The translations under genes and the position numbers were made by a program. A DNA stretch of 64,000 bases, from positions 71,207-135,206 of the forward strand of contig VMGC01000004.1 of assembly GCA_007376385.1 (NCBI GenBank), in the 5' to 3' direction. The DNA comes from Parcubacteria group bacterium Gr01-1014_8 (GTDB lineage: Bacteria > Patescibacteriota > Minisyncoccia > Phycocordibacterales > UBA2100). A model generated the notes under the pieces. It saw only the letters and a list, made by a program, of their open reading frames with translations. It did not search any database and was not told where the DNA came from. How positions within the stretch are numbered: position 1 is the stretch's first letter; each line of letters begins with the position of its first letter. This document shows positions 6,456 through 62,516 of this stretch, one piece after another.

Positions 6456-7367
6456 CTACAGCCATTTGCGCCGTTTGAAATACCACACCATAAGCGCGCC
6501 CGCAGTTGCGACTATGCCGACAATGATCCAGAAATCGTAGGGCAGACCTACGATCGGATTGGATCTCGCATTGATGTCGAAAATAGCAACGAAAAGCGAA
6601 AGAGGGAATGTAAGGAGTGCCATGATGGTAAGAACGCGCATTGTCTCGTTCTCTTTCGTCGAAAGAAGAGAGTTATTGGTTTCGCGCAATTCGTGGAGGA
6701 CCTCTGTAAGTCTCATGACATGATTGTGTACTCGATAATATTCGTTCGACAAGGCGCGCAAATAACTGACGAATTCTTCTCCAAAGAACATCTGACCGTC
6801 TTTATCGAGCGTGTGGAGTACGTCTCTGTGCGGTTCAATAGTTTGCCTTAAATTCAGCAGGTCTCTTGCGCTTCTTGAAAGCCGCTCGACCATGCCAACT
6901 TCGTGGCCGGAAAATATGTTCTCTTCAATATGCGAAAGGTCGCTTCGCACGAAATCAATTTCATGCTCAACGGCCTTATAGAGACGCTTGAGCATGTAGT
7001 AAAAAAGAAAGCCGGCATGATCTCCCATGACGCTTTTATCAAGAATTGAATTCACTTCAAAAAGCTTGGAAAATGTATGCAGCGGGTCAATGGTGTCGTA
7101 GTGAGTAGTGATGATGAATGACTTGCCTATGACAAAATCTATTTCTTGCTCGATGGTTCTGTGCGTGTGTCGTAGAGCAGGGAAGTGGAGAATAGCGTAG
7201 ATGTAATCGTTATAGAATTCGACTCGAGGTTTCGCAGTCGGTAGAAGAAGTTCTTCCGCGATAAGGTGGGCAAGGCCGAATTCATCCATAACAGCGCGGA
7301 CCTCTTCGCGGGTAGGGGATTCGAGGTCTATCCACACGAGCGATGAATGCTCATGGCGTGACAACAT
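6456..7367 (-). CDS. CorA-family divalent cation transporter with non-canonical GMN motif
   Basis: CorA-like N-terminal cytoplasmic domain (WIDLESPTREE...), two C-terminal TM helices, C-terminal YFKRRKWL; the YGMNF position reads FDINA. Confidence 0.75.
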   Translation of the reverse strand: MLSRHEHSSLVWIDLESPTREEVRAVMDEFGLAHLIAEELLLPTAKPRVEFYNDYIYAILHFPALRHTHRTIEQEIDFVIGKSFIITTHYDTIDPLHTFSKLFEVNSILDKSVMGDHAGFLFYYMLKRLYKAVEHEIDFVRSDLSHIEENIFSGHEVGMVERLSRSARDLLNLRQTIEPHRDVLHTLDKDGQMFFGEEFVSYLRALSNEYYRVHNHVMRLTEVLHELRETNNSLLSTKENETMRVLTIMALLTFPLSLFVAIFDINARSNPIVGLPYDFWIIVGIVATAGALMVWYFKRRKWL

Positions 7368-8681: not shown

Positions 8682-8687
8682 CGTATG

Positions 8688-8823
8688 CCCGCACACCAAT
8701 GGTGGCATAATGTTTTTGTTGCAAATATACTATCTGACATGTATCCAGATTCGGAAACTCGTACTGCGACTACGGATAATATTCTGAAAACACGTGGCAA
8801 CCATGCCACCATTGGTGTGCGGG
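8688..8823. repeat. 136-bp element bounded by 21-bp perfect inverted repeats CCCGCACACCAATGGTGGCAT / ATGCCACCATTGGTGTGCGGG, filling the ctpA-rplI spacer
   Basis: Read directly: 8688-8708 is the exact reverse complement of 8803-8823; left arm starts 7 nt after ctpA stop, right arm ends 1 nt before rplI ATG. Confidence 0.8.
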
Positions 8824-8824
8824 T

Positions 8825-9274
8825 ATGAAGGTCATCATGCTTCGTGATGTCGCAGGTGTGGGACAAAAGGGAACCATAGCGCGCGTATCGGATGGCTATG
8901 CCATGAATTTTCTTATTCCTCAAAAATTTGCAGAAATGGCTACAGAAGAGAAGGTCAATGAGACGCATAAACGAAAAGCCGAAGCTGAAGCCATGGTGGT
9001 GAAGCAGATGGCAGAATGGAAGGAGCAAGCAACACGGCTTGCTAATGCATCAGTGACAGTTCGCATGGAGGCAAATGAAAAGGGACAGCTGTATAGTCAG
9101 ATACCTCACGCCAAAATTCTTGAACGCATATCGAAGGAGCTCGGCATCAACGTTAAGGAGGAATGCCTGGTCGATGTAAGGCCGATAAAATCACTCGGCC
9201 GTACTGAAATAGACCTTACGCTGGGCGGGAAACGGATCCCATTCACTGTTTTTGTGGAGAGAAAAGAGGATTAA
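8825..9274 (+). CDS. rplI: 50S ribosomal protein L9
   Basis: [34 protein letters not shown]-terminal L9 signature. Confidence 0.9.
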
Positions 9275-9957: not shown

Positions 9958-9984
9958 GAAACATAACGGGGGCAACTGTGCTTC

Positions 9985-10020
9985 GTACCATAATGGTGCC
10001 GGTCGGCACCATTATGGTAC
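9985..10020. repeat. perfect 16-bp-stem palindrome GTACCATAATGGTGCC-GGTC-GGCACCATTATGGTAC (terminator-like or protein-binding site)
   Basis: Read directly; lies 28 nt after the stop of 9595..9957; no U-tract follows. Confidence 0.7.
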
Positions 10021-10097
10021 GCATATAAATCAAAAGGAGACAGAAAATCCCCGAAACAAACACGACAGCTGGTATATCATGGGATATACTTATCGTC

Positions 10098-10700
10098 ATG
10101 TTGGTCGTCGATGTTGAAGCCTCGGGGACAGAGGCGCATACACACTCCATTGTGAGTGTTGGCGCACTGGACCTTTCAAACCCGACCAATCGTTTTTATG
10201 AAGAGTGCCGCGTATGGGACGGCGCGCACATCATGGATGAGGCGCTTGTCGTTAATGGTTTTACGCGAGAACAGATAATCGACCCAAAAAAGTTATCGGA
10301 AGCAGACCTTGTCCATAAATTTCTGCATTGGAGTGAAGATTTGACTAACCGCACTCTAGCTGGACAGAACGTGTCATTCGACAGAGATTTCTTAAAATAT
10401 GCATCGCAAAGGGCGGGGCATACGGATTGGCCATTCGCATATCGCACCATAGACACTCATACGCTCTGCTGGGCTCATATGGTGAATCGGGGATTGAAAC
10501 CGCCAATAGACCCGAAGCACCGGCGCTCTGCGCTCGATTTGGACGCTGTACTGAACTATTGCGGGATTCCGAACGAGCCAGAACCGCATAATGCTCTTAC
10601 GGGAGCGTTGTCGCATGGAGAAGTAATCTCAAGATTGTTGTATGGAAGGAAATTACTGCCAGAATTCACGCAGTTCGATATTCCGTGGAAAAAAGTGTAG
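10098..10700 (+). CDS. DEDDh-family 3'-5' exonuclease (DnaQ/RNase T-like)
   Basis: VVDVEASG (Exo I), HNALTGALSHGEV (Exo III with His). Confidence 0.75.
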   Translation: MLVVDVEASGTEAHTHSIVSVGALDLSNPTNRFYEECRVWDGAHIMDEALVVNGFTREQIIDPKKLSEADLVHKFLHWSEDLTNRTLAGQNVSFDRDFLKYASQRAGHTDWPFAYRTIDTHTLCWAHMVNRGLKPPIDPKHRRSALDLDAVLNYCGIPNEPEPHNALTGALSHGEVISRLLYGRKLLPEFTQFDIPWKKV

Positions 10701-14112: not shown

Positions 14113-15444
14113 TTACGAAAGAGAAGCTATGGCTTTGCTGACGCGCCGCACTGTCTCATCCTTACCGAGGATCGAAGCAACAAGAAAAGGGTCCGGTGAC
14201 TGTTCTTTGCCGGTAAGAGAGTATCGAAAAGGCCAAAGAACTGCTCCCCTTCCCTCTTTAGTGGCGTAGGGCCAAAGCGCATCTTTTATCGAGGATACGT
14301 CGAATACATTCAACGCTTCAAGCAGAGTCTTGATATCCCTAAGATGCTCGGCAGTTTTTGCGGCGCTGATCTTCTTCATTGGAATGAGATGTGCCTCTAC
14401 TGAGGGCTGAACGAAGAAATAGTCGTATTCGCCGTTCATTGATTGTTCGTGAATGTCGCTCCATACAGAAATTCGCTCGCGAACAAGCGGAATGATCTTT
14501 TTTGCAATGGATTCGTTCCAGTTCAAATGCGTAAGTGAATTTTCAAGCCACGACAGAGCCTCTGATGCGAACGCACTATCTGATAGTTTCAACATATATT
14601 CGCGATTGAACCATCGCAATTTCTCAACATCGAAGACTGCTCCGCTTTTGTGCAGATCTGATAGTTCGAATTCCTGTACCATCTCATCGAGCGACAATAC
14701 TTCCCTTCCTGACGGCGCAGTCCACCCCAGCGTCGCTAGGTAGTTCAAGAGCGCTTGGGGCAGATATCCCTTTTCCCTGTAATTCTTTACAGCAACGTCG
14801 CCCTTTCGCTTGGATAATTTTGCCCGGTCGAGGCTCAGGTGCAGAGGATAATGGGCGTACATGGGTCTTTTCGCGCCGAGTGCTTCTTGAATGAGAATTT
14901 GACGCGGCGTATTAGATATATGGTCCTCCCCTCTGATAACGTGCGTAATTCCCATAGCCGCATCGTCAACCACGACGGCAAGATGATACAGCGGGTCGTC
15001 CTTGGAGCGAGCGATGACAAAGTCTTTAAGCTCCGTTGTGTCAAACGATATATCGCCGCGTATGACATCAGTAAACGTGATAGTTTTGCCGGAATTCCGC
15101 AATCGAATAACGCTCACCATTGTACCGGGGTCCTTCTTACTCTCTTCGTCCGATACGTATGCTTTATCTTCATCAATAAGTTTTTCTATTTCAGCGCGAT
15201 ACACGTCGATCCTCTCGGATTGTCTATGAAATTCGTCCCATGAAAGCCCAAGCCACGTGAGCGAATCTTTGATGTCATCCTCGAATTCTCGGGTACTTCG
15301 TTCTTTGTCCGTATCCTCTGAGCGAAAAATGATGGTGCCATTGTTTTTTCGCGCAAACAAATAATTCACGATGGCCATACGCGCAGTACCTACGTGGCAG
15401 AACCCGGTCGGGCTCGGCGGAAATCTAACCCGCACGGAATTCAT
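14113..15444 (-). CDS. gltX: glutamyl-tRNA synthetase
   Basis: VRVRFPPSPTGFCHVGTARMAIVNYLFAR (HIGH region), KLSKRKG (KMSKS). Confidence 0.92.
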   Translation of the reverse strand: MNSVRVRFPPSPTGFCHVGTARMAIVNYLFARKNNGTIIFRSEDTDKERSTREFEDDIKDSLTWLGLSWDEFHRQSERIDVYRAEIEKLIDEDKAYVSDEESKKDPGTMVSVIRLRNSGKTITFTDVIRGDISFDTTELKDFVIARSKDDPLYHLAVVVDDAAMGITHVIRGEDHISNTPRQILIQEALGAKRPMYAHYPLHLSLDRAKLSKRKGDVAVKNYREKGYLPQALLNYLATLGWTAPSGREVLSLDEMVQEFELSDLHKSGAVFDVEKLRWFNREYMLKLSDSAFASEALSWLENSLTHLNWNESIAKKIIPLVRERISVWSDIHEQSMNGEYDYFFVQPSVEAHLIPMKKISAAKTAEHLRDIKTLLEALNVFDVSSIKDALWPYATKEGRGAVLWPFRYSLTGKEQSPDPFLVASILGKDETVRRVSKAIASLS

Positions 15445-15547
15445 ACCCCGTGAGAGAGATTACGCGAGCTTATGCAACAAACTCTCGGGATATTGAATTG
15501 AATGAATAGTATTGTCATATCTATTATTTTTTCTCTCATGGGGTCAT
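15443..15547. repeat. MITE/REP-like inverted-repeat unit (ATACCCCGTGAGAGAGA ... TTCTCTCATGGGGTCAT) filling the murG-gltX spacer
   Basis: Inverted arms read directly; left arm overlaps the gltX ATG, right arm overlaps the murG stop; same ACCCCRTGAGA core as units at 30712, 47342 and 48245. Confidence 0.7.
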
Positions 15548-16683
15548 AGCGGCTCGTGGGAGAGCGCGGTCTCGAGAAGAATGGTCGCAAGCTTCCCTCC
15601 CGCATCGGGTCGTGCAAATTGTGCGGCCGCGGCGGACATCTTCGCCCGAGTCATCTCATCGTTCATTACTCTGTCTATTTCTGCAGCAAGGAGATGCGGC
15701 GTCAAATTCTTTTGATCAACGACAACAGATGCTCCCGTTCTTGCATATGAGAACGCATTCTCCGTCTGATCATTTGAGATCTCCTTTGGGAGAGGAATAA
15801 TGATGCTCGGCAATTTCCACGATGCTATTTCAAAAATGGTGCCGGACCCCGCTCGGGCAACAACGAGCGATGCAATTCCCGCTGTCATTCGCAGAGCAAG
15901 CGTGTTTAGCAGTCCGAATGTACGGTAGCGTTCTTTGTACGGCGAATCTTTGAGGATGACGTTAGCTATCCCATTCAATTCTTCAAGATTAGATTTTCCG
16001 GTTTGGTGAACGACATTATATTTAGAGAGCAAGTCGGGGAGAGCGTTGAGTACGGCCTCATTTATTGCCTGTGCTCCCTGCGAGCCTCCCATGATAAAGA
16101 CTGTCGCTCGCGGCTGAAGTTTGAGAAATTCATATCCGCCCTCTTTCGTCGGATTCTCTATCTCTTTTCGTATCGGGTGTCCAATGAGAGCAATGCGCGA
16201 CTTCACTTTCGATGAATATTGCGCAACAGCTTCTGGATGAGCAACGGCGACCCATTTGGCGAATTTCGATGACCACAACGAGACTCGTCCGGGCTTTGCG
16301 TCTGCGTCGTATATGACAACCGGAATGTTTAAGGTGCGCGCTGCGTAGAGAGTCGGAAACGCCGCGTAACCGCCGGTAGAAAAGACGACATCAGGATAGA
16401 TTGAAAATAATTGGAAAATTGATTTGATTATGCCGACGAACGTCTTGAAAACGTCAAACACGTTAAGAATGCTCGGATATGTGCGCAACTTTCCTGCAGG
16501 CGAAGGCCGATAGGAAATATCATGCTCGACAAGCGCTGCGTCATCAAACGCAGGCGGACCAATGTAGAAAAATTCAGGCGAAACAAGCCGCCGCGCATCC
16601 ACGAGATCCTCAATGTGCTCCGCAACTGCAATGAGGGGATAAAAATGTCCGCCAGAGCCCCCTCCCGTGAAGACGATGCGCAT
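15544..16683 (-). CDS. murG: UDP-GlcNAc:lipid I GlcNAc transferase
   Basis: MRIVFTGGGSGGHFYPLIAV N-terminal G-loop; full-length collinearity with MurG. Confidence 0.92.
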   Translation of the reverse strand: MRIVFTGGGSGGHFYPLIAVAEHIEDLVDARRLVSPEFFYIGPPAFDDAALVEHDISYRPSPAGKLRTYPSILNVFDVFKTFVGIIKSIFQLFSIYPDVVFSTGGYAAFPTLYAARTLNIPVVIYDADAKPGRVSLWSSKFAKWVAVAHPEAVAQYSSKVKSRIALIGHPIRKEIENPTKEGGYEFLKLQPRATVFIMGGSQGAQAINEAVLNALPDLLSKYNVVHQTGKSNLEELNGIANVILKDSPYKERYRTFGLLNTLALRMTAGIASLVVARAGSGTIFEIASWKLPSIIIPLPKEISNDQTENAFSYARTGASVVVDQKNLTPHLLAAEIDRVMNDEMTRAKMSAAAAQFARPDAGGKLATILLETALSHEPL

Positions 16684-24185: not shown

Positions 24186-25121
24186 CTAGATCGAAACTCC
24201 AATCTTTTCACGAACGTCATACATCTTCTTGGATGCATATTCTCGCGCGTTCGCGCTCCCCTTTTCAAGTATTGTTGCTACATCTGAATCGCTGATCGAT
24301 GCATATTTCTCTCTCATCGGTTTTACAACGGCATCAATGTCCTCGATAAGCGCCTCTTTCAGGACCTTGTATTTTCCTTTATGTGCGCTATAGAGCGACT
24401 CAAGTTCTGCCTCAGCGCGAAAATGCCGGTGTACTTGGTACACATTCTCAGGTCTTTCTCCGGATGAGTCAGTGACAATGGACATCACCGCTTTTACGAG
24501 AACATCCTTTGGCTCAAAGAGAGGTATCGTATTTCCATAGCTCTTGCTCATTTTCTTGCCATCCGTGCCTGGAACGATAGCGACAGAATCCAATATCTTT
24601 GCTTGCGGTTCTTTAAATGTTTGGCCGAACGCAATGTTGAATTTCGACGCCGCTTCACGCGCGTACTCGAGATGCTGCCGCTGGTCAGCGCCCACTGGTA
24701 CAACATCGGTATCGTACAGCAAAATATCTGCGGCCATAAGCATCGGATAGTTAAAAAGTCCCACGTTCGCTTCGAGTCCTTTCGCAAGTTTGTCCTTGTA
24801 CGCATGCGACAGTTCGAGGAAAGGAACAGTGACAAGACATTCAAATATCCACGCGAGTTCTGTGTGCTCCTGGACACGCGACTGCTGGAATATGACCGCT
24901 TTATTGGGGTCAATACCGGCTGCAACGTAACTCTTGACGATATCGCGTATGTTGCTCCGAAGTTCATCCTTCTGGCGCAGAGTAGTAAGCGCGTGATAAT
25001 CAGCAACCATCAAAAAGCTTTCGAAGCTGAAATAGAGTTCGGAAAACGGCTTTAATGCGCCCAAGTAATTCCCAATATGCAATACACCAGAAGGCTGGAG
25101 TCCCGTCAAAAGTCGCTGCAC
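24186..25121 (-). CDS. trpS: tryptophanyl-tRNA synthetase
   Basis: TGLQPSGVLHIGNYLGA (HIGH region), KKMSKSYGN (KMSKS). Confidence 0.92.
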   Translation of the reverse strand: MQRLLTGLQPSGVLHIGNYLGALKPFSELYFSFESFLMVADYHALTTLRQKDELRSNIRDIVKSYVAAGIDPNKAVIFQQSRVQEHTELAWIFECLVTVPFLELSHAYKDKLAKGLEANVGLFNYPMLMAADILLYDTDVVPVGADQRQHLEYAREAASKFNIAFGQTFKEPQAKILDSVAIVPGTDGKKMSKSYGNTIPLFEPKDVLVKAVMSIVTDSSGERPENVYQVHRHFRAEAELESLYSAHKGKYKVLKEALIEDIDAVVKPMREKYASISDSDVATILEKGSANAREYASKKMYDVREKIGVSI

Positions 25122-30711: not shown

Positions 30712-30817
30712 GTATACCCCATGAGATAATATCGCAACAAGTGCAACAATGCTGTTGATAATTTGATGCATTTCGAGTTTGATGTGTACGTGATTCATTC
30801 TATCTCACGGGGTATAC
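30712..30817. repeat. MITE/REP-like inverted-repeat unit (GTATACCCCATGAGATA ... TATCTCACGGGGTATAC) in the dnaK-dnaJ spacer
   Basis: 17-bp arms read directly with 16/17 complementarity; 73-bp interior contains CAACA-atgc-TGTTG mini-hairpin shared with the degenerate copy at 36818. Confidence 0.75.
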
Positions 30818-36817: not shown

Positions 36818-36849
36818 GTATACCCCAACATAATGCTGTTGGCAATATT
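36818..36849. repeat. degenerate half-copy of the GTATACCCC... MITE family in an unusually long (189-bp) rpsD-rpoA spacer
   Basis: GTATACCCCAACATAATGCTGTTG shares the left arm start and the CAACA..TGTTG interior hairpin with the unit at 30712-30817; no right arm. Confidence 0.5.
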
Positions 36850-45850: not shown

Positions 45851-47073
45851 GGTGCGTGTTGTATCTGCTCAATGAGAATATGCAAGCCCTCATCTAACTG
45901 CTCTTCTGAGATAGTGAGCGGCGGCATGAGCTGCATATTGTCTCCGCTTCCTACAACAACGTGCAGGCCTCCCGAGAGCGCTGATCGCTGGACGCGCACG
46001 CACGTTTCTGCATCCTTGAATTGAACTCCTATTTCCATTCCTTTCCCCCGAACAGCAACGACGACACCGCCGAGATCCTTTTTGATCGTTTTCATGATAT
46101 ATGCTCCTTTTTTCTCTGCCATGTCCCACGTCTTATCACGTTGATGAACCTGCAGAGTTTTTAATGCTGCCGCACACGCAAGCGGCGTCCACCCAAACGT
46201 TGAAATGAGCATCGCGTCCGGAAACGCTTTTTCAAAAATATCTCTCCTGCCCACCGATGTCCCTATAGCTACCGAGCCATTTGAGATCCCTTTTGCGAGC
46301 ACTATCATATCTGGGATGACGCTTTCGTGCTCTATTGCAAACAATTTTCCCGTCCGCGAGAATCCCGTTCCCACTTCGTCGATGATGAGCAACGTGCCGT
46401 ATGCAGCCGTCAGCTGTCGAACGCTTTTGAGAAAACCTGGGTACGCAATAGCGGTAGACCCCCAACCCGTAACAATTCCCGGCTCAGTTACTATTGCAGC
46501 GATATCTTCACCAGCGAGCAATTCTTCCAAGTCTGAAAGAAATTTCTCGAAAACTTCATTCCCGAGGTTTTCTTCGGGAAATTGTATCGGCGTTATTTCA
46601 GGCACAAGAGGTGCAAGTCTCTCTCTTGCCGCTCCAGAAGCGCCGAGCGCAAGTGAAGCGAATAGCTGTCCATGATAGTGCTCATTGAAACCGAGGATTT
46701 TCTTTCGTCCTGTGTAGGCGCGCGCCACTTTTATTGACATTTCTATCGCTTCAGTGCCGCCTGTCGCTTTCATGCATGCGTTAAGCTCTTTGGGCAGTGA
46801 CGCGGTGAGCGCTTTAGCATATTCTTCCTGAATGACATCACTGCCCCACAAGAGCCCTTGCACGTTCTTTTCAACCTGCTCGATGATCGCCTCAGATATT
46901 TCTGGATGATTCCAACCAAGATTTGTAACGTTCCAGCCAGAAGTAAAATCGATGAATCGTTTTCCTTCTCGATCCCAAATCTCCCCGCCACGCGCTTTCC
47001 CGAATGAGAAAAACTTTATTGGACCGCCCGTACCGTCCTTTGAGGCGCGGTAGACGATACTATTTTCTATCAT
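45847..47073 (-). CDS. class-III PLP-dependent aminotransferase (ArgD/GabT-like)
   Basis: LIIDEVGTGFSRTGKLFAIEH...VLAKGISNG (Lys for PLP Schiff base). Confidence 0.85.
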   Translation of the reverse strand: MIENSIVYRASKDGTGGPIKFFSFGKARGGEIWDREGKRFIDFTSGWNVTNLGWNHPEISEAIIEQVEKNVQGLLWGSDVIQEEYAKALTASLPKELNACMKATGGTEAIEMSIKVARAYTGRKKILGFNEHYHGQLFASLALGASGAARERLAPLVPEITPIQFPEENLGNEVFEKFLSDLEELLAGEDIAAIVTEPGIVTGWGSTAIAYPGFLKSVRQLTAAYGTLLIIDEVGTGFSRTGKLFAIEHESVIPDMIVLAKGISNGSVAIGTSVGRRDIFEKAFPDAMLISTFGWTPLACAAALKTLQVHQRDKTWDMAEKKGAYIMKTIKKDLGGVVVAVRGKGMEIGVQFKDAETCVRVQRSALSGGLHVVVGSGDNMQLMPPLTISEEQLDEGLHILIEQIQHAP

Positions 47074-47079
47074 AGGTAA

Positions 47080-47334
47080 CTAGATACGGGCTCCTTCACC
47101 CCTCAATAGAGCACGCTTACGTCTCTCTCCGCCGCGGTTATAATTGCCTAAGCTACCGTCAGAACGAACTACTCTGTGACACGGAATAGTCGGGTCATAG
47201 TTCGTCCGCATAATCGCGCCGACTCCTCGCGCCGCTTTGGAATTTCCCGCCTTTGTAGCAACCTGTTTATAGGTCATAGAACCCCCCTTTGGGATCGTGC
47301 GTACGATATCGAGGACTTTCTCACGAAACGTCAT
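47080..47334 (-). CDS. methylated-DNA-protein-cysteine methyltransferase, DNA-binding/catalytic domain only (start at MTFREKVL)
   Basis: IPCHRVV active-site motif (PCHR), preceding helix-turn-helix YKQVATKAGNSKAARGVGA. Confidence 0.8.
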   Translation of the reverse strand: MTFREKVLDIVRTIPKGGSMTYKQVATKAGNSKAARGVGAIMRTNYDPTIPCHRVVRSDGSLGNYNRGGERRKRALLRGEGARI

Positions 47335-47341
47335 GCACGCA

Positions 47342-47447
47342 TTATACCCCATGAGATAGATCTCAAGATATGCATTCTGAATCAAATCATTCGCAGACGG
47401 ATTTCTAAAACATCAAGTCAGAGAATGTATCTCACGGGGTTATATAC
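47342..47447. repeat. MITE/REP-like inverted-repeat unit (TTATACCCCATGAGATAGA ... GTATCTCACGGGGTTATATAC) between MGMT start and nuclease stop
   Basis: Arms read directly; right arm overlaps the stop codon of 47440..48237. Confidence 0.7.
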
Positions 47448-48237
47448 CCAGAGTACCCTGAACTTTCTTCGAGTTTTTGGGCGCAAATGCGAGCATTTTT
47501 TTGCCGACTGCTTCTCGATATCGGCAATAGTCGCACTCTTCTGATGCAGATGGCAACTCATCACGTTCCAGACACAATTTTATTTCTTTGAGCGTTCCTT
47601 CGACCCACGAATCGTCACCTTTATAAGGGACGAGAGTTACCTCGAACTCCAGCAGAGCATCAAATGCCTTTTTGTCCCTATCCGCGTTCGCATACACGAA
47701 GTACCCAGTGTCAGAGACCTTGAATCCGTTCTGCCTAAAGAGCCACTGGTATATTTCCATTTGCCGTTTGTATCCATCGTGCCACTCTTGGTCCAATTCT
47801 TTTATCGTTTCGTCTTTACTCGTCGCCTTGTAATCAACGATGATAAGTTCGCCCTTTGGATCTATCCATATGTCATCCACGCCGCCGCACACCATGAATC
47901 CTGTGCTGTGGCGATGGCAGATACCCCGCTTCAATGAGTCACGCCATTCATCTATGCGCGAGTCATCGAACGGAACCGCATCAACACCGTATTCTTTCAA
48001 GAGCGGATGCGTTGTCTTTTCTGTCCGATGAATATCGAATTCCTTTTTTAACAGCGCATCAACTGCACTATTCAGATTGAACGGAAAGCCCGGCGGACGA
48101 GCTGTCCCAAGCTTGTTATCAATATAAAAACACCTGGGGCACTCAAGAAAAAGCCCTATTTTCGAGCGAGAAAGACGGAACCTATCTCCGCCATAGTTCC
48201 AATTTGGATTTCTGTCTGGCTTGTAGTAGCCGCTCAT
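47440..48237 (-). CDS. RecB-family PD-(D/E)XK nuclease, Cas4-like (stand-alone)
   Basis: GGVDDIWIDPKGELIIVDYKATSK (RecB nuclease motifs II/III), N-terminal CPRC and C-terminal CDYC (possible Fe-S cysteines as in Cas4/AddB). Confidence 0.75.
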   Translation of the reverse strand: MSGYYKPDRNPNWNYGGDRFRLSRSKIGLFLECPRCFYIDNKLGTARPPGFPFNLNSAVDALLKKEFDIHRTEKTTHPLLKEYGVDAVPFDDSRIDEWRDSLKRGICHRHSTGFMVCGGVDDIWIDPKGELIIVDYKATSKDETIKELDQEWHDGYKRQMEIYQWLFRQNGFKVSDTGYFVYANADRDKKAFDALLEFEVTLVPYKGDDSWVEGTLKEIKLCLERDELPSASEECDYCRYREAVGKKMLAFAPKNSKKVQGTLGI

Positions 48238-48244
48238 GGGACGA

Positions 48245-48314
48245 GTATACCCCGTGAGATCAAGAAATCTAAATATTTCGAACGACGTATGGGAACTTAT
48301 CTCACGGAATATAC
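48245..48314. repeat. MITE/REP-like inverted-repeat unit (GTATACCCCGTGAGAT ... TTATCTCACGGAATATAC) directly upstream of the nuclease start codon
   Basis: Arms read directly; same family core; begins 8 nt upstream of the nuclease ATG. Confidence 0.7.
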
Positions 48315-48451
48315 CACCGCCTCTGTCTGGAACATCGCCTCTGATATTCAGGTTGGAGAATATCGGAGGCGATGCATTTTTTTGCGTCGACGGAGCCGAC
48401 TAACTTCCAGCAAGCCGACCCAGGTGCCCTCGTGTTAGCGAAGGATCGGCT

Positions 48452-48934
48452 TTACAAACTTCGCGAATCGCCTCGTTCTTTAACCTCGATGAACCAATGC
48501 TTGAATGTATTTTCCACGTACCACATGCCAAAAAAGATGGCGAGTGTCAGCAACGTCGAGAAAATAGCGATCTGATACATACCAAACGCGACTACGGCTC
48601 CTACAGCAGCCGCAACCCACAATCCCGCGGCAGTTGTTACGCCATGTAGCGAGTCGCCTTTGAAAATAATAAGCCCTGCACCAAGAAAACCTATGCCCTG
48701 CACCACGGAAGCTAAGACACGGGCCGGATCGAAATTAACCAATCCTATGAATTGCGAGTCAACTGACATACCAGTCAGCACGAAGAGGCACGAGCCGAGC
48801 GAGACTAATCCGAACGTGCGGCTGCCTGCCGCTTGATTTGCCATCAATGCCCGTTCAGTACCGACGATGACACCCAAGAAAGCTGCAAGCAACAACTTGA
48901 GCATCAGCGTGCTCGTCGGATCTACGAAATCCAT
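48452..48934 (-). CDS. MgtC/SapB-family membrane protein
   Basis: LLAAFLGVIVGTERALMANQAAGSRTFGLVSLGSCLF typical MgtC N-terminal region, 4-5 TM. Confidence 0.8.
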   Translation of the reverse strand: MDFVDPTSTLMLKLLLAAFLGVIVGTERALMANQAAGSRTFGLVSLGSCLFVLTGMSVDSQFIGLVNFDPARVLASVVQGIGFLGAGLIIFKGDSLHGVTTAAGLWVAAAVGAVVAFGMYQIAIFSTLLTLAIFFGMWYVENTFKHWFIEVKERGDSRSL

Positions 48935-54964: not shown

Positions 54965-55107
54965 GTTTTTGGTTTTTGAACCATTTGACGGAACAAACTG
55001 GTTATGGCGTATGTTTTATCAGAATCTGAGAGGTGTGTCAATTTATTACTTGCGCAGAATACCCCGTAGCTCTGCTGCGGGGATAAATGCGCAAGAGCGG
55101 AGGGGGT

Positions 55108-62015: not shown

Positions 62016-62516
62016 TTAATTGTCCGCGTCCCTGGGCGATGGCAGCCATTTCACTGAAAGAATAGGAACGAGTGCGACGAGCGCATATCCAAGCCAGACT
62101 CGCCACTTGTAATAAATGCTCCATCCCGCGAACGGCACAGAAAAGACCATATCTAAAAGTGCGACCAATACAGACCAACTTAATGAATAGAGCAGCATAT
62201 CCTGCCAGGTAACGGCCCCAAGTGAACGCGCTGCTATCGTAGTAACGATGACGAGCGTTCCTATTTGCAGGAGCCATGCCCACGGAGCGCCAGCCACGCC
62301 ATAGATGACAAAACCCGACCACAGCAAAAACATGACCGCATAAATAACAACTGCCCAGCCGAATATCGAAAAATATTTCATGGCGAGATTGCCAATTGGA
62401 TACATGTAATCATACACCCCCGCAGAGCCGAAGCTCTGCGGGGGTGTAGATAGCCGGCTACGCCGACTTTTACGTCTTCGCTCGTGGATCAAAAAGCCAT
62501 GCTTTCGCGATTCCAC
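62016..62516 (-). CDS. hypothetical membrane protein (4 TM)
   Basis: ORF only. Confidence 0.4.
   Translation of the reverse strand: MESRKHGFLIHERRRKSRRSRLSTPPQSFGSAGVYDYMYPIGNLAMKYFSIFGWAVVIYAVMFLLWSGFVIYGVAGAPWAWLLQIGTLVIVTTIAARSLGAVTWQDMLLYSLSWSVLVALLDMVFSVPFAGWSIYYKWRVWLGYALVALVPILSVKWLPSPRDADN

Follow-up and report, generated by a model that had tools for sequence, protein, structure and literature searches.

Short inverted-repeat units in gene spacers of a Parcubacteria genome share their termini with a tiny element predicted to encode a GIY-YIG nuclease

Results

The stretch analysed here, hereafter the window, comprises 64,000 nucleotides of contig VMGC01000004.1 (positions 71,207 to 135,206, forward strand) of Parcubacteria group bacterium Gr01-1014_8, a member of the candidate phyla radiation (CPR; Patescibacteria), and it contains a family of short inverted-repeat units in the spacers between genes. 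An earlier note, made from the sequence alone, had proposed four complete units of this family, and all four are found, the first of them spanning 15441-15549: each consists of two inward-facing arms, and each lies between minus-strand genes. The underlying motif is far above chance, as the 15-mer GTATAMCCCRTGAGA has 8 matches with at most two mismatches in the 64 kb against 0.18 expected, a count reached by none of 100 shuffles of the window; the match at 24312 is probably a chance one. The units measure 70-109 bp, and their interiors hold no gene-sized open reading frame (ORF). A search for tRNA and tmRNA genes found none, and the window has no match to Rfam at gathering thresholds, with chance-level matches alone at E ≤ 10 around two units.

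Unit A (15441-15549) fills the murG/gltX spacer. Its arms, CCCCGTGAGAGA (15446-15457) and TCTCTCATGGGG (15532-15543), stand within a 5-bp direct repeat, TCATA (15441-15445 and 15544-15548), and on the minus strand the right copy supplies the murG stop codon TGA (15546-15544) and the left copy the gltX ATG (15444-15442). The proposal that the gltX start codon is the end of an arm is explained by this, the ATG falling within the duplicated TCATA. Unit B (30712-30817), in the dnaK/dnaJ spacer, has the arms CCCCATGAGATA (30717-30728) and TATCTCACGGGG (30801-30812) and a duplicated TATA (30713-30716 and 30813-30816). Unit C (47342-47447), between a gene for a PD-(D/E)XK nuclease and a gene for an MGMT-like DNA-binding protein, carries the same two arm sequences (47347-47358 and 47428-47439) within the 5-bp direct repeat TTATA (47342-47346 and 47440-47444); on the minus strand the upstream copy, TATAA, ends in the stop codon TAA (47442-47440) and the downstream copy begins a TATAAT -10 box. 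The short unit D (48245-48314, 70 bp) lies in the spacer between the genes for MgtC and the PD-(D/E)XK nuclease, with the arms CCCCGTGAGATC (48250-48261) and TATCTCACGGAA (48298-48309), the latter degenerate, and a duplicated TATA (48246-48249 and 48310-48313). Three of the four units, those beginning at 15441, 47342 and 48245, lie against or overlap start and stop codons, but the dnaK/dnaJ unit does not: it lies 86 nt past the dnaK stop and ~105 nt ahead of the dnaJ ATG.

One solo arm, TATATCATGGGATATACT, is present on the plus strand at 10072-10090; it differs at two positions from TATCTCATGGGGTATACT, has no partner arm and is followed by TATCGTC-ATG of an RNase T-like gene (ATG at 10098). 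Two other stretches that had been listed with it as solo or degenerate arms are not demonstrable members of the family: 36818-36849 has only GTATACCCC in common with the units and is otherwise an unrelated small hairpin, and 55058-55085 is a short ACCCCG...CGGGG hairpin instead.

The family extends far beyond this organism. Scanning one genome per GTDB species (596 Gb) with the pattern ACCCCRTGAGA-N55-85-TCTCAYGGGGT, we found at least 113 matching stretches where ~4 would be expected by chance, by our arithmetic, which takes into account 20 fixed positions, 2 two-fold ones, 31 possible gap lengths and the 596 Gb. Sorted by record title, 76 of these come from metagenome-assembled genomes (MAGs) of candidate phyla (Patescibacteria, CPR), 9 from Verrucomicrobiota, 8 from Planctomycetota, 10 from other phyla (Omnitrophota, KSB1, Bacteroidota, Nitrospirota and others) and 10 from unclassified sources. 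The co-directional neighbours proposed as typical are the rule in the window, but elsewhere units are found between divergent (31) or convergent (14) genes as well.

From the matching loci (which carry labels such as L063) and the window we extracted 143 units. Their terminal inverted repeats, CCCCRTGAGATA and TATCTCAYGGGG, are 12-13 bp long and near-invariant, the conserved block on each side being A-CCCC-R-TGAGA-TA. The two sides are 89-98% complementary across the arm, a figure that falls to 23-30%, the random level, just inside it. The inverted arms proposed earlier are thus real, but their conserved part is 12-13 nt rather than 16-20 bp, and the outer GTATAC is mostly duplicated target TATA. 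Between the arms lies a filler, usually of ~70 nt, without conserved sequence or fold (mean folding z of -0.10, no signal), which is richer in A+T than the surrounding locus (G+C 43% versus 51%). The interiors are unrelated in sequence, except for tandem duplicates and a few families of copies within one genome, and nevertheless the length from outer arm to outer arm has a sharp mode at 95-100 nt (134 pattern matches). Arms rarely stand alone: only 16 of 304 exact arms are without a partner within 140 nt, 95% being paired. At arm position 5 (R/Y) the pairs G/C, A/C and G/T occur 50, 47 and 45 times and A/T once (~15 expected), and with the exception of that one A/T case each unit keeps CCCCGTGAGA in at least one arm.

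In some genomes units form tandem arrays (L063:1726-2295, L052:2700-3300, L068:2053-2267, L089:3213-3334), in which neighbours share one flank word (GGGG-Txy A-CCCC) and a palindromic junction of 28-30 nt recurs every 60-100 bp; one Saccharibacteria-labelled MAG has the same unit as a tandem pair at three loci. For these junctions a site-specific recombination site or a CRISPR-like array was considered and dropped because of the target duplications and empty sites described below. Carriage by phages was likewise rejected, as IMG/VR holds only 2 units and no copy bearing the ORF described below.

The bases immediately outside CCCC...GGGG form a direct rather than an inverted repeat. A perfect direct repeat of 4 bp flanks 66 of the 143 units and one of 5 bp flanks 7 (17.8 and 0.5 in shuffles), and non-palindromic dinucleotides are directly repeated in 30 cases where 3.2 are expected. 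The duplicated word is most often TATA, but TGTA, TACA, TCTA, TAGA, TGAA and others also occur. The earlier note had suggested comparing the spacers with their orthologues in relatives; orthologues of the PD-(D/E)XK gene were fetched, the spacers on either side were compared with those of the window, and empty sites were found. The MgtC-PD-(D/E)XK spacer reads ggTATA[CCCC...GGGG]TATACT-N6-ATG in the window and is filled in the same way, with a recognisably homologous interior, in L216 (87% amino acid identity to the window); in L215 (86%) and L217 (79%) it is empty and reads ggTATACT-N7-ATG. The left flanks can be aligned between filled and empty sites, and the empty sites hold a single TATA. 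A 98-nt unit occupies the same spot as unit D in L024. The spacer of unit C is filled in the window alone, L216, L217 and L218 having 12-17 nt or a stop/start overlap there. L218 also carries a unit with variant arms inserted past ATGAG, with TGAG duplicated. Two relatives (78-79% amino acid identity) lack such a unit between murG and gltX, and in L066 a unit that the window lacks lies upstream of a corA-like gene. Moreover, near-identical interiors occur within MAGs at separate loci with different flanks (L009/L027/L068, L028/L034 and L012/L065). The units are therefore insertions with inverted termini and target duplications. Two spacers that hold a unit in the window hold unrelated inverted-repeat elements in relatives, AATAACCAA / TTGGTTATT at L215:4801-4938 and GTATCAAGTA / TACTTGATAC at L230:2430-2557, and several repeat families seem to colonise these short spacers.

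The same termini also bracket a gene. At L063 one long "unit" encloses an ORF of 86 amino acids, and a similar ORF adjoins arms in L055, L094 and L042. The predicted product is a GIY-YIG domain protein (matches to PF01541) in which the Y, Y-G, R, H and E residues are invariant. Of the 1543 matches in a protein search, the best 120 include 91 that end in Y-L-T/M-G, the translation of TATCTCAYGGGG; others read on into a following arm (-GFTP). In all ORFs of three clusters CCCCGTGAGATA lies 3-16 nt ahead of the ATG and TATCTCACGGGG spans the last four codons, followed by the stop: the right terminus encodes both the end of the protein (Y-L-T-G) and the stop codon, and in 83% of cases the ORF starts 3-16 nt inward of the other terminus. 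The protein-side searches were independent of any search for arms. A protein profile retrieved 78 assessable loci from JGI metagenomes, in which the ORF is flanked by both arms in 65, by the left arm only in 7, by the right arm only in 2 and by neither in 4. A sub-family has the termini CCCCGTTAGATA / TATCTAACGGGG, in which the change in the Leu codon is synonymous, and the two arms covary (GAGA/TCTC versus TAGA/TCTA), with 51 and 40 concordant cases and 16 mixed ones. The units in the spacers thus share their termini with a tiny element which, as judged from its reading frame, encodes a nuclease.

The ORF-bearing element is 266-298 bp long and its protein of 85-90 amino acids comprises the catalytic domain only. 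The nearest solved structures are the UPF0213 proteins 1ywl (E = 9e-7) and 1zg2, with SLX1 weaker. A profile search reached 3071 clusters (50% identity) at E ≤ 1e-10, only part of which end in YLTG. ORF-bearing copies often interrupt genes at conserved motifs, for example between RHSF and ATHLL in tyrosine recombinases and between WQRxF and ..DHIIR in Y1/RAYT-like transposases (L116, L119, L122-L131, L136, L154, L179, L191, L209, L210); the interrupted host frame is still recognisable on either side, and L122 has an intact paralogue of the interrupted Y1 gene just upstream. The flanks of these copies are mostly TTCA...TAAA (25) or TTTA...TGAA (15), which is one arrangement in two orientations, and their exact ends, judged from the interrupted host genes, are ambiguous by 1-4 nt. 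A DDE transposase between more distant arms was also considered and rejected: the 5 wider arm pairs in 113 loci enclose the GIY-YIG ORF once and otherwise ordinary genes or ORFs unlike a transposase. No remnant of the GIY-YIG ORF was found in the unit interiors.

Genes in the window typically have G(G)TAnnnT 6-7 nt ahead of the ATG (for example at 7367, 53884, 59259, 51344 and 41403) and rarely a run resembling a Shine-Dalgarno sequence. This spacing of the -10 box to the start codon is the geometry of leaderless transcription, and it suggests that leaderless messenger RNAs (mRNAs) are the norm here. Three such hexamers adjoin arms in the window: TATACT at 48244-48249 (minus strand), made up of the duplicated target TATA and CT and standing 6 nt ahead of the PD-(D/E)XK ATG at 48237; TATAAT at 47341-47346 (minus strand), 6 nt ahead of the ATG (47334) of the MGMT-like gene; and TATACT at 10085-10090 (plus strand), 7 nt before the ATG at 10098. 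A scan pairs the first of these with TTTAGA at a distance of 18 nt, and the hexamer is also present in the empty sites.

Across all loci TAnnnT directly follows GGGG on 73 of 267 unit sides, and in 48 of these 73 (66%) the start codon of a long ORF lies 10-17 nt from the first base of the hexamer, compared to 6.3% when TAnnnT is taken at random from these loci and 6.7% on sides that lack the hexamer. Among the 124 fully assessable units this -10/start geometry exists on exactly one side in 45 and on both sides in none; two thirds of the units have no gene start beside either arm. On the promoter side the interiors score slightly better for a -35-like hexamer (3.16 versus 2.64, p = 0.001). Read inward, arm and flank together give stops in all three frames, and the upstream ORF is therefore closed: inward-read long ORFs end at the TGA within CCCCGTGAGA (17), at TA[AG] after GAGA (19) or just before CCCC (11). 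The downstream gene, in turn, keeps its -10 box because the TATA duplication rebuilds the hexamer (GGGG-TATACT-N6-ATG). In CPR genomes the units sit at -10 boxes and at gene ends, and both are preserved. The rebuilt hexamer would be the working promoter.

Unit C would have duplicated TATAA, i.e. a stop codon TAA embedded in TATAAT, and unit A the stop/start overlap TATGA, in which case murG and gltX would originally have overlapped through ATGA; the empty murG/gltX spacers of relatives have diverged, and this overlap before insertion is one that we infer. The earlier note had also placed a GGGG stretch just upstream of the ATG. As a general rule this fails, the usual geometry being GGGG-TAnnnT-N6-7-ATG with the -10 box of a leaderless mRNA. 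A Shine-Dalgarno role of GGGG was accordingly rejected, with a usual spacing of 12 nt and the TAnnnT hexamer in between. The ATG of the arm itself as an in-frame start is not general either: it is in frame at the MGMT-like gene and not at 10098.

Other repeats and hairpins lie nearby. A second, unrelated inverted-repeat unit occupies 8685-8826, the whole spacer between the stop of an S41 peptidase gene and the rplI ATG. Its 24-nt arms (ATGCCCGCACACCAATGGTGGCAT and ATGCCACCATTGGTGTGCGGGTAT) are 96% complementary with 94 nt between them, and the rplI ATG overlaps the end of the right one; among the fetched loci the arm sequence is confined to this contig. Short perfect or near-perfect hairpins are present at 62413-62448 (TACACCCCCGCAGAGC-cgaa-GCTCTGCGGGGGTGTA) and 55062-55078 (ACCCCGTAGC..GCTGCGGGG). 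In their outer bases these look like the ends of units (TACA-CCCC / GGGG-TGTA), and they could be related mini-elements, excision remnants or coincidence. A perfect 18-nt palindrome with a 2-nt loop (CGTACCATAATGGTGCCG / CGGCACCATTATGGTACG, 9984-10021) lies between an Ada-like gene and the solo arm. At 48333-48374 a 17-bp hairpin is followed by a T-run on the plus strand; both neighbouring genes are on the minus strand, and read on that strand the hairpin is preceded by an A-run.

Discussion

Because the same termini bracket a GIY-YIG ORF, we regard the units as MITE-like relatives of the ORF-bearing element that lack the ORF (MITE, miniature inverted-repeat transposable element). We consider it likely that they are copies of a miniature non-coding mobile element, the ORF-less form of a GIY-YIG element of ~280 bp, whose nuclease would mobilise them in trans. 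The MITE-like behaviour proposed in the earlier note is evident in the terminal inverted repeats, the 4-5-bp target duplications, the empty sites and the near-identical copies at different sites. In this genome the element has inserted into T-rich or A-rich tetramers or pentamers at gene boundaries, and insertion into the TATA of a -10 hexamer duplicates that TATA. The GIY-YIG protein, supplied in trans, may recognise the termini or the hairpin or cruciform that they could form, and may make the breaks that move the element.

Several observations weigh against this model. The flanks of the ORF-bearing copies show no evident duplication, so that these may insert by a chemistry other than that of the ORF-less copies in CPR bacteria. 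One ORF cluster, found on 18 contigs with always the same neighbours, looks single-locus, and no GIY-YIG gene lies in the 72 kb analysed from this genome. To our knowledge the GIY-YIG domain only hydrolyses DNA and has no joining activity. Characterised GIY-YIG enzymes, as far as is known, leave 2-nt overhangs, a length that matches only when the outer T and A of T-NN-A are counted as part of the element. The length mode is narrow (95-100 bp) despite unrelated interiors, and in orthologous units the arms are perfectly conserved while the interiors have diverged, which could reflect constraint at the level of the host rather than recency.

Alternatively, the inverted-repeat unit may itself be basic, moved by another enzyme or maintained by the host, and the GIY-YIG ORF may be a separate selfish gene that colonises its loop in the manner of a homing endonuclease. 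This would fit the L063 array, in which just one of several tandem units holds the ORF, as well as the single-locus behaviour of the sole ORF-bearing copy checked and the presence of target duplications around ORF-less copies and not around ORF-bearing ones; moreover, the nearest solved relatives, SLX1 and UPF0213, are structure-specific nucleases that could cut an extruded hairpin. The terminus, however, itself encodes the last codons and the stop of the ORF, the start lies close inside the other terminus in most cases, and both termini covary along with the coding sequence, all of which argues for long co-evolution as one element and not for occasional invasion; nor is there another candidate enzyme between arms in the 113 loci. 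We therefore view a separate selfish gene as unlikely. It is very unlikely that the units act as hairpins in mRNA, i.e. as intercistronic stabilisers, processing sites or terminators, a function the earlier note had envisaged and REP (repetitive extragenic palindromic) and Correia elements are known to have. Both strands would fold, with a 13-17-bp stem and z from -1.3 to -4.0, and in several cases a unit begins directly at the upstream gene's stop codon, but there is no indication that selection acts on the RNA. The units are not followed by a T-run, and an intrinsic terminator was rejected on the basis of a scan of 47000-48500 that calls none at the units, the sequence outside the arms being T-N-N-A and then random. 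The stem stops at the conserved arm without extending inward, and it is the arm sequence that is conserved, not merely its pairing. The strand compatible with G.U pairs, as opposed to A.C, is the sense strand in 20 units and the antisense strand in 25, an absence of bias that also led us to reject selection of a sense-strand RNA through G.U wobble. Furthermore, units lie between divergent and convergent genes as well, no Rfam family matches, and the -10 box at the outer end places the unit outside the downstream leaderless mRNA.

The arms might instead be operator sites for a conserved regulator, in which case the units would be promoter modules of the host and not mobile DNA. In keeping with such a function, the arm stands directly upstream of a -10 box in about a third of the units, arms are invariant in orthologous units while the interiors drift, the solo arm at 10072 is kept before a -10 box, and the -35-like score is slightly better on the promoter side. 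We nevertheless hold this to be improbable in the extreme, since the arms are nearly always inward-facing pairs, target duplications and empty sites show insertion, most units have no gene start next to either arm, and these termini also enclose a nuclease gene that has inserted into other genes. That the units are REP-based bacterial interspersed mosaic elements (BIMEs), the other possibility raised by the earlier note, or REPINs, moved by a RAYT (REP-associated tyrosine transposase, a Y1 HUH enzyme), is hardly credible. The resemblance lies in the hairpin-forming inverted doublet of ~100 bp in spacers and in an enzyme gene elsewhere that is flanked by the same repeats; it is contradicted by arms that are not palindromes and pair only with the other arm ~75 nt away, by the absence of a GTAG or CGTC tag, the outer bases T-N-N-A (mostly TATA) behaving as duplicated target, by the target duplication itself, and by the flanked gene, which is that of the GIY-YIG nuclease in 65 of 78 loci, RAYT-like genes appearing only as interrupted targets.

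Returning to a miniature element mobilised in trans by the GIY-YIG nuclease, a more far-reaching version of this model is that the unit of ~280 bp is an autonomous element smaller than any known insertion sequence (IS), which moves without a transposase by staggered breaks made by its nuclease and spreads its ORF-less copies in trans, and that candidate-phyla bacteria tolerate or even use these copies, as they rebuild leaderless -10 promoters and close upstream frames. We offer this version only tentatively and regard it as possible but doubtful. The literature, searched by sequence and for GIY-YIG proteins together with inverted repeats, for MITEs and for UPF0213/YhbQ, yielded no account of such an element; its coverage was incomplete and a prior description is possible, but the family looks undescribed and unusual.

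If the link to the nuclease holds, prokaryotic mobile DNA would include a further class whose sole protein is a minimal GIY-YIG nuclease, and the widespread and unexplained small genes of the UPF0213-like GIY-YIG type would gain a testable role. The 12-13-nt terminus provides a cross-phylum marker with which horizontal spread among uncultivated lineages can be traced. For CPR bacteria, the units give a concrete picture of how very short spacers take up insertions: as a -10 box or a stop/start overlap is duplicated on insertion, both neighbouring genes remain intact. They also lend sequence-level support to a leaderless promoter architecture in these bacteria, and they call for caution in annotation, since start and stop codons beside units can be products of target duplication.

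The nearest sequences of solved structure to the 86-amino-acid protein are the UPF0213 (YhbQ-like) proteins and the nuclease domain of SLX1, a structure-specific nuclease for which a hairpin or cruciform would be a suitable substrate. Unlike this protein, both are treated as cellular repair factors; we know of no reported link between them and flanking inverted repeats or mobility, and the literature searches yielded none. With GIY-YIG homing endonuclease genes (I-TevI, T4 Seg) the ORF-bearing copies have in common the GIY-YIG core, a selfish behaviour and a location inside conserved gene motifs, features that concern the ORF-bearing relatives only, the units in the window being without the ORF. 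They differ from these genes in that the protein has 86 amino acids and no separate DNA-binding domain, in that they do not lie in an intron, in the bracketing inverted repeats that overlap the stop, and in the existence of ORF-less derivatives with target duplications. The REPIN/RAYT system, in which REP doublets accompany a single-copy Y1 transposase gene with REPs on either side, likewise combines many hairpin-forming inverted doublets of ~100 bp with a low-copy enzyme gene bracketed by the same repeats, and its spacer is less conserved than the arms. In contrast to that system, however, the units are associated with a GIY-YIG rather than an HUH Y1 fold, have non-palindromic arms, no GTAG and a target duplication, and are distributed across phyla rather than lineage-specific.

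The units also resemble bacterial MITEs such as the Correia elements of Neisseria, RUP and ERIC, which are short and non-coding, have terminal inverted repeats and an A/T-rich target duplication, lie in spacers beside gene starts and ends, can supply promoter elements from their outer ends and give rise to transcripts that can fold. Size, inverted termini, target duplication, presence or absence in relatives and several copies per genome (four units and one solo arm in the 64 kb of the window) all agree with this class. A partner with the same termini exists as well; the GIY-YIG nuclease that it encodes is not a recognised transposase, and it is here that the units depart from known MITEs, as the element sharing their termini encodes this nuclease and not a DDE/IS transposase. 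The units are further set apart from MITEs by 12-13-nt termini that are identical across several phyla and by interiors that are unrelated between copies, yet held to a length near 97 bp.

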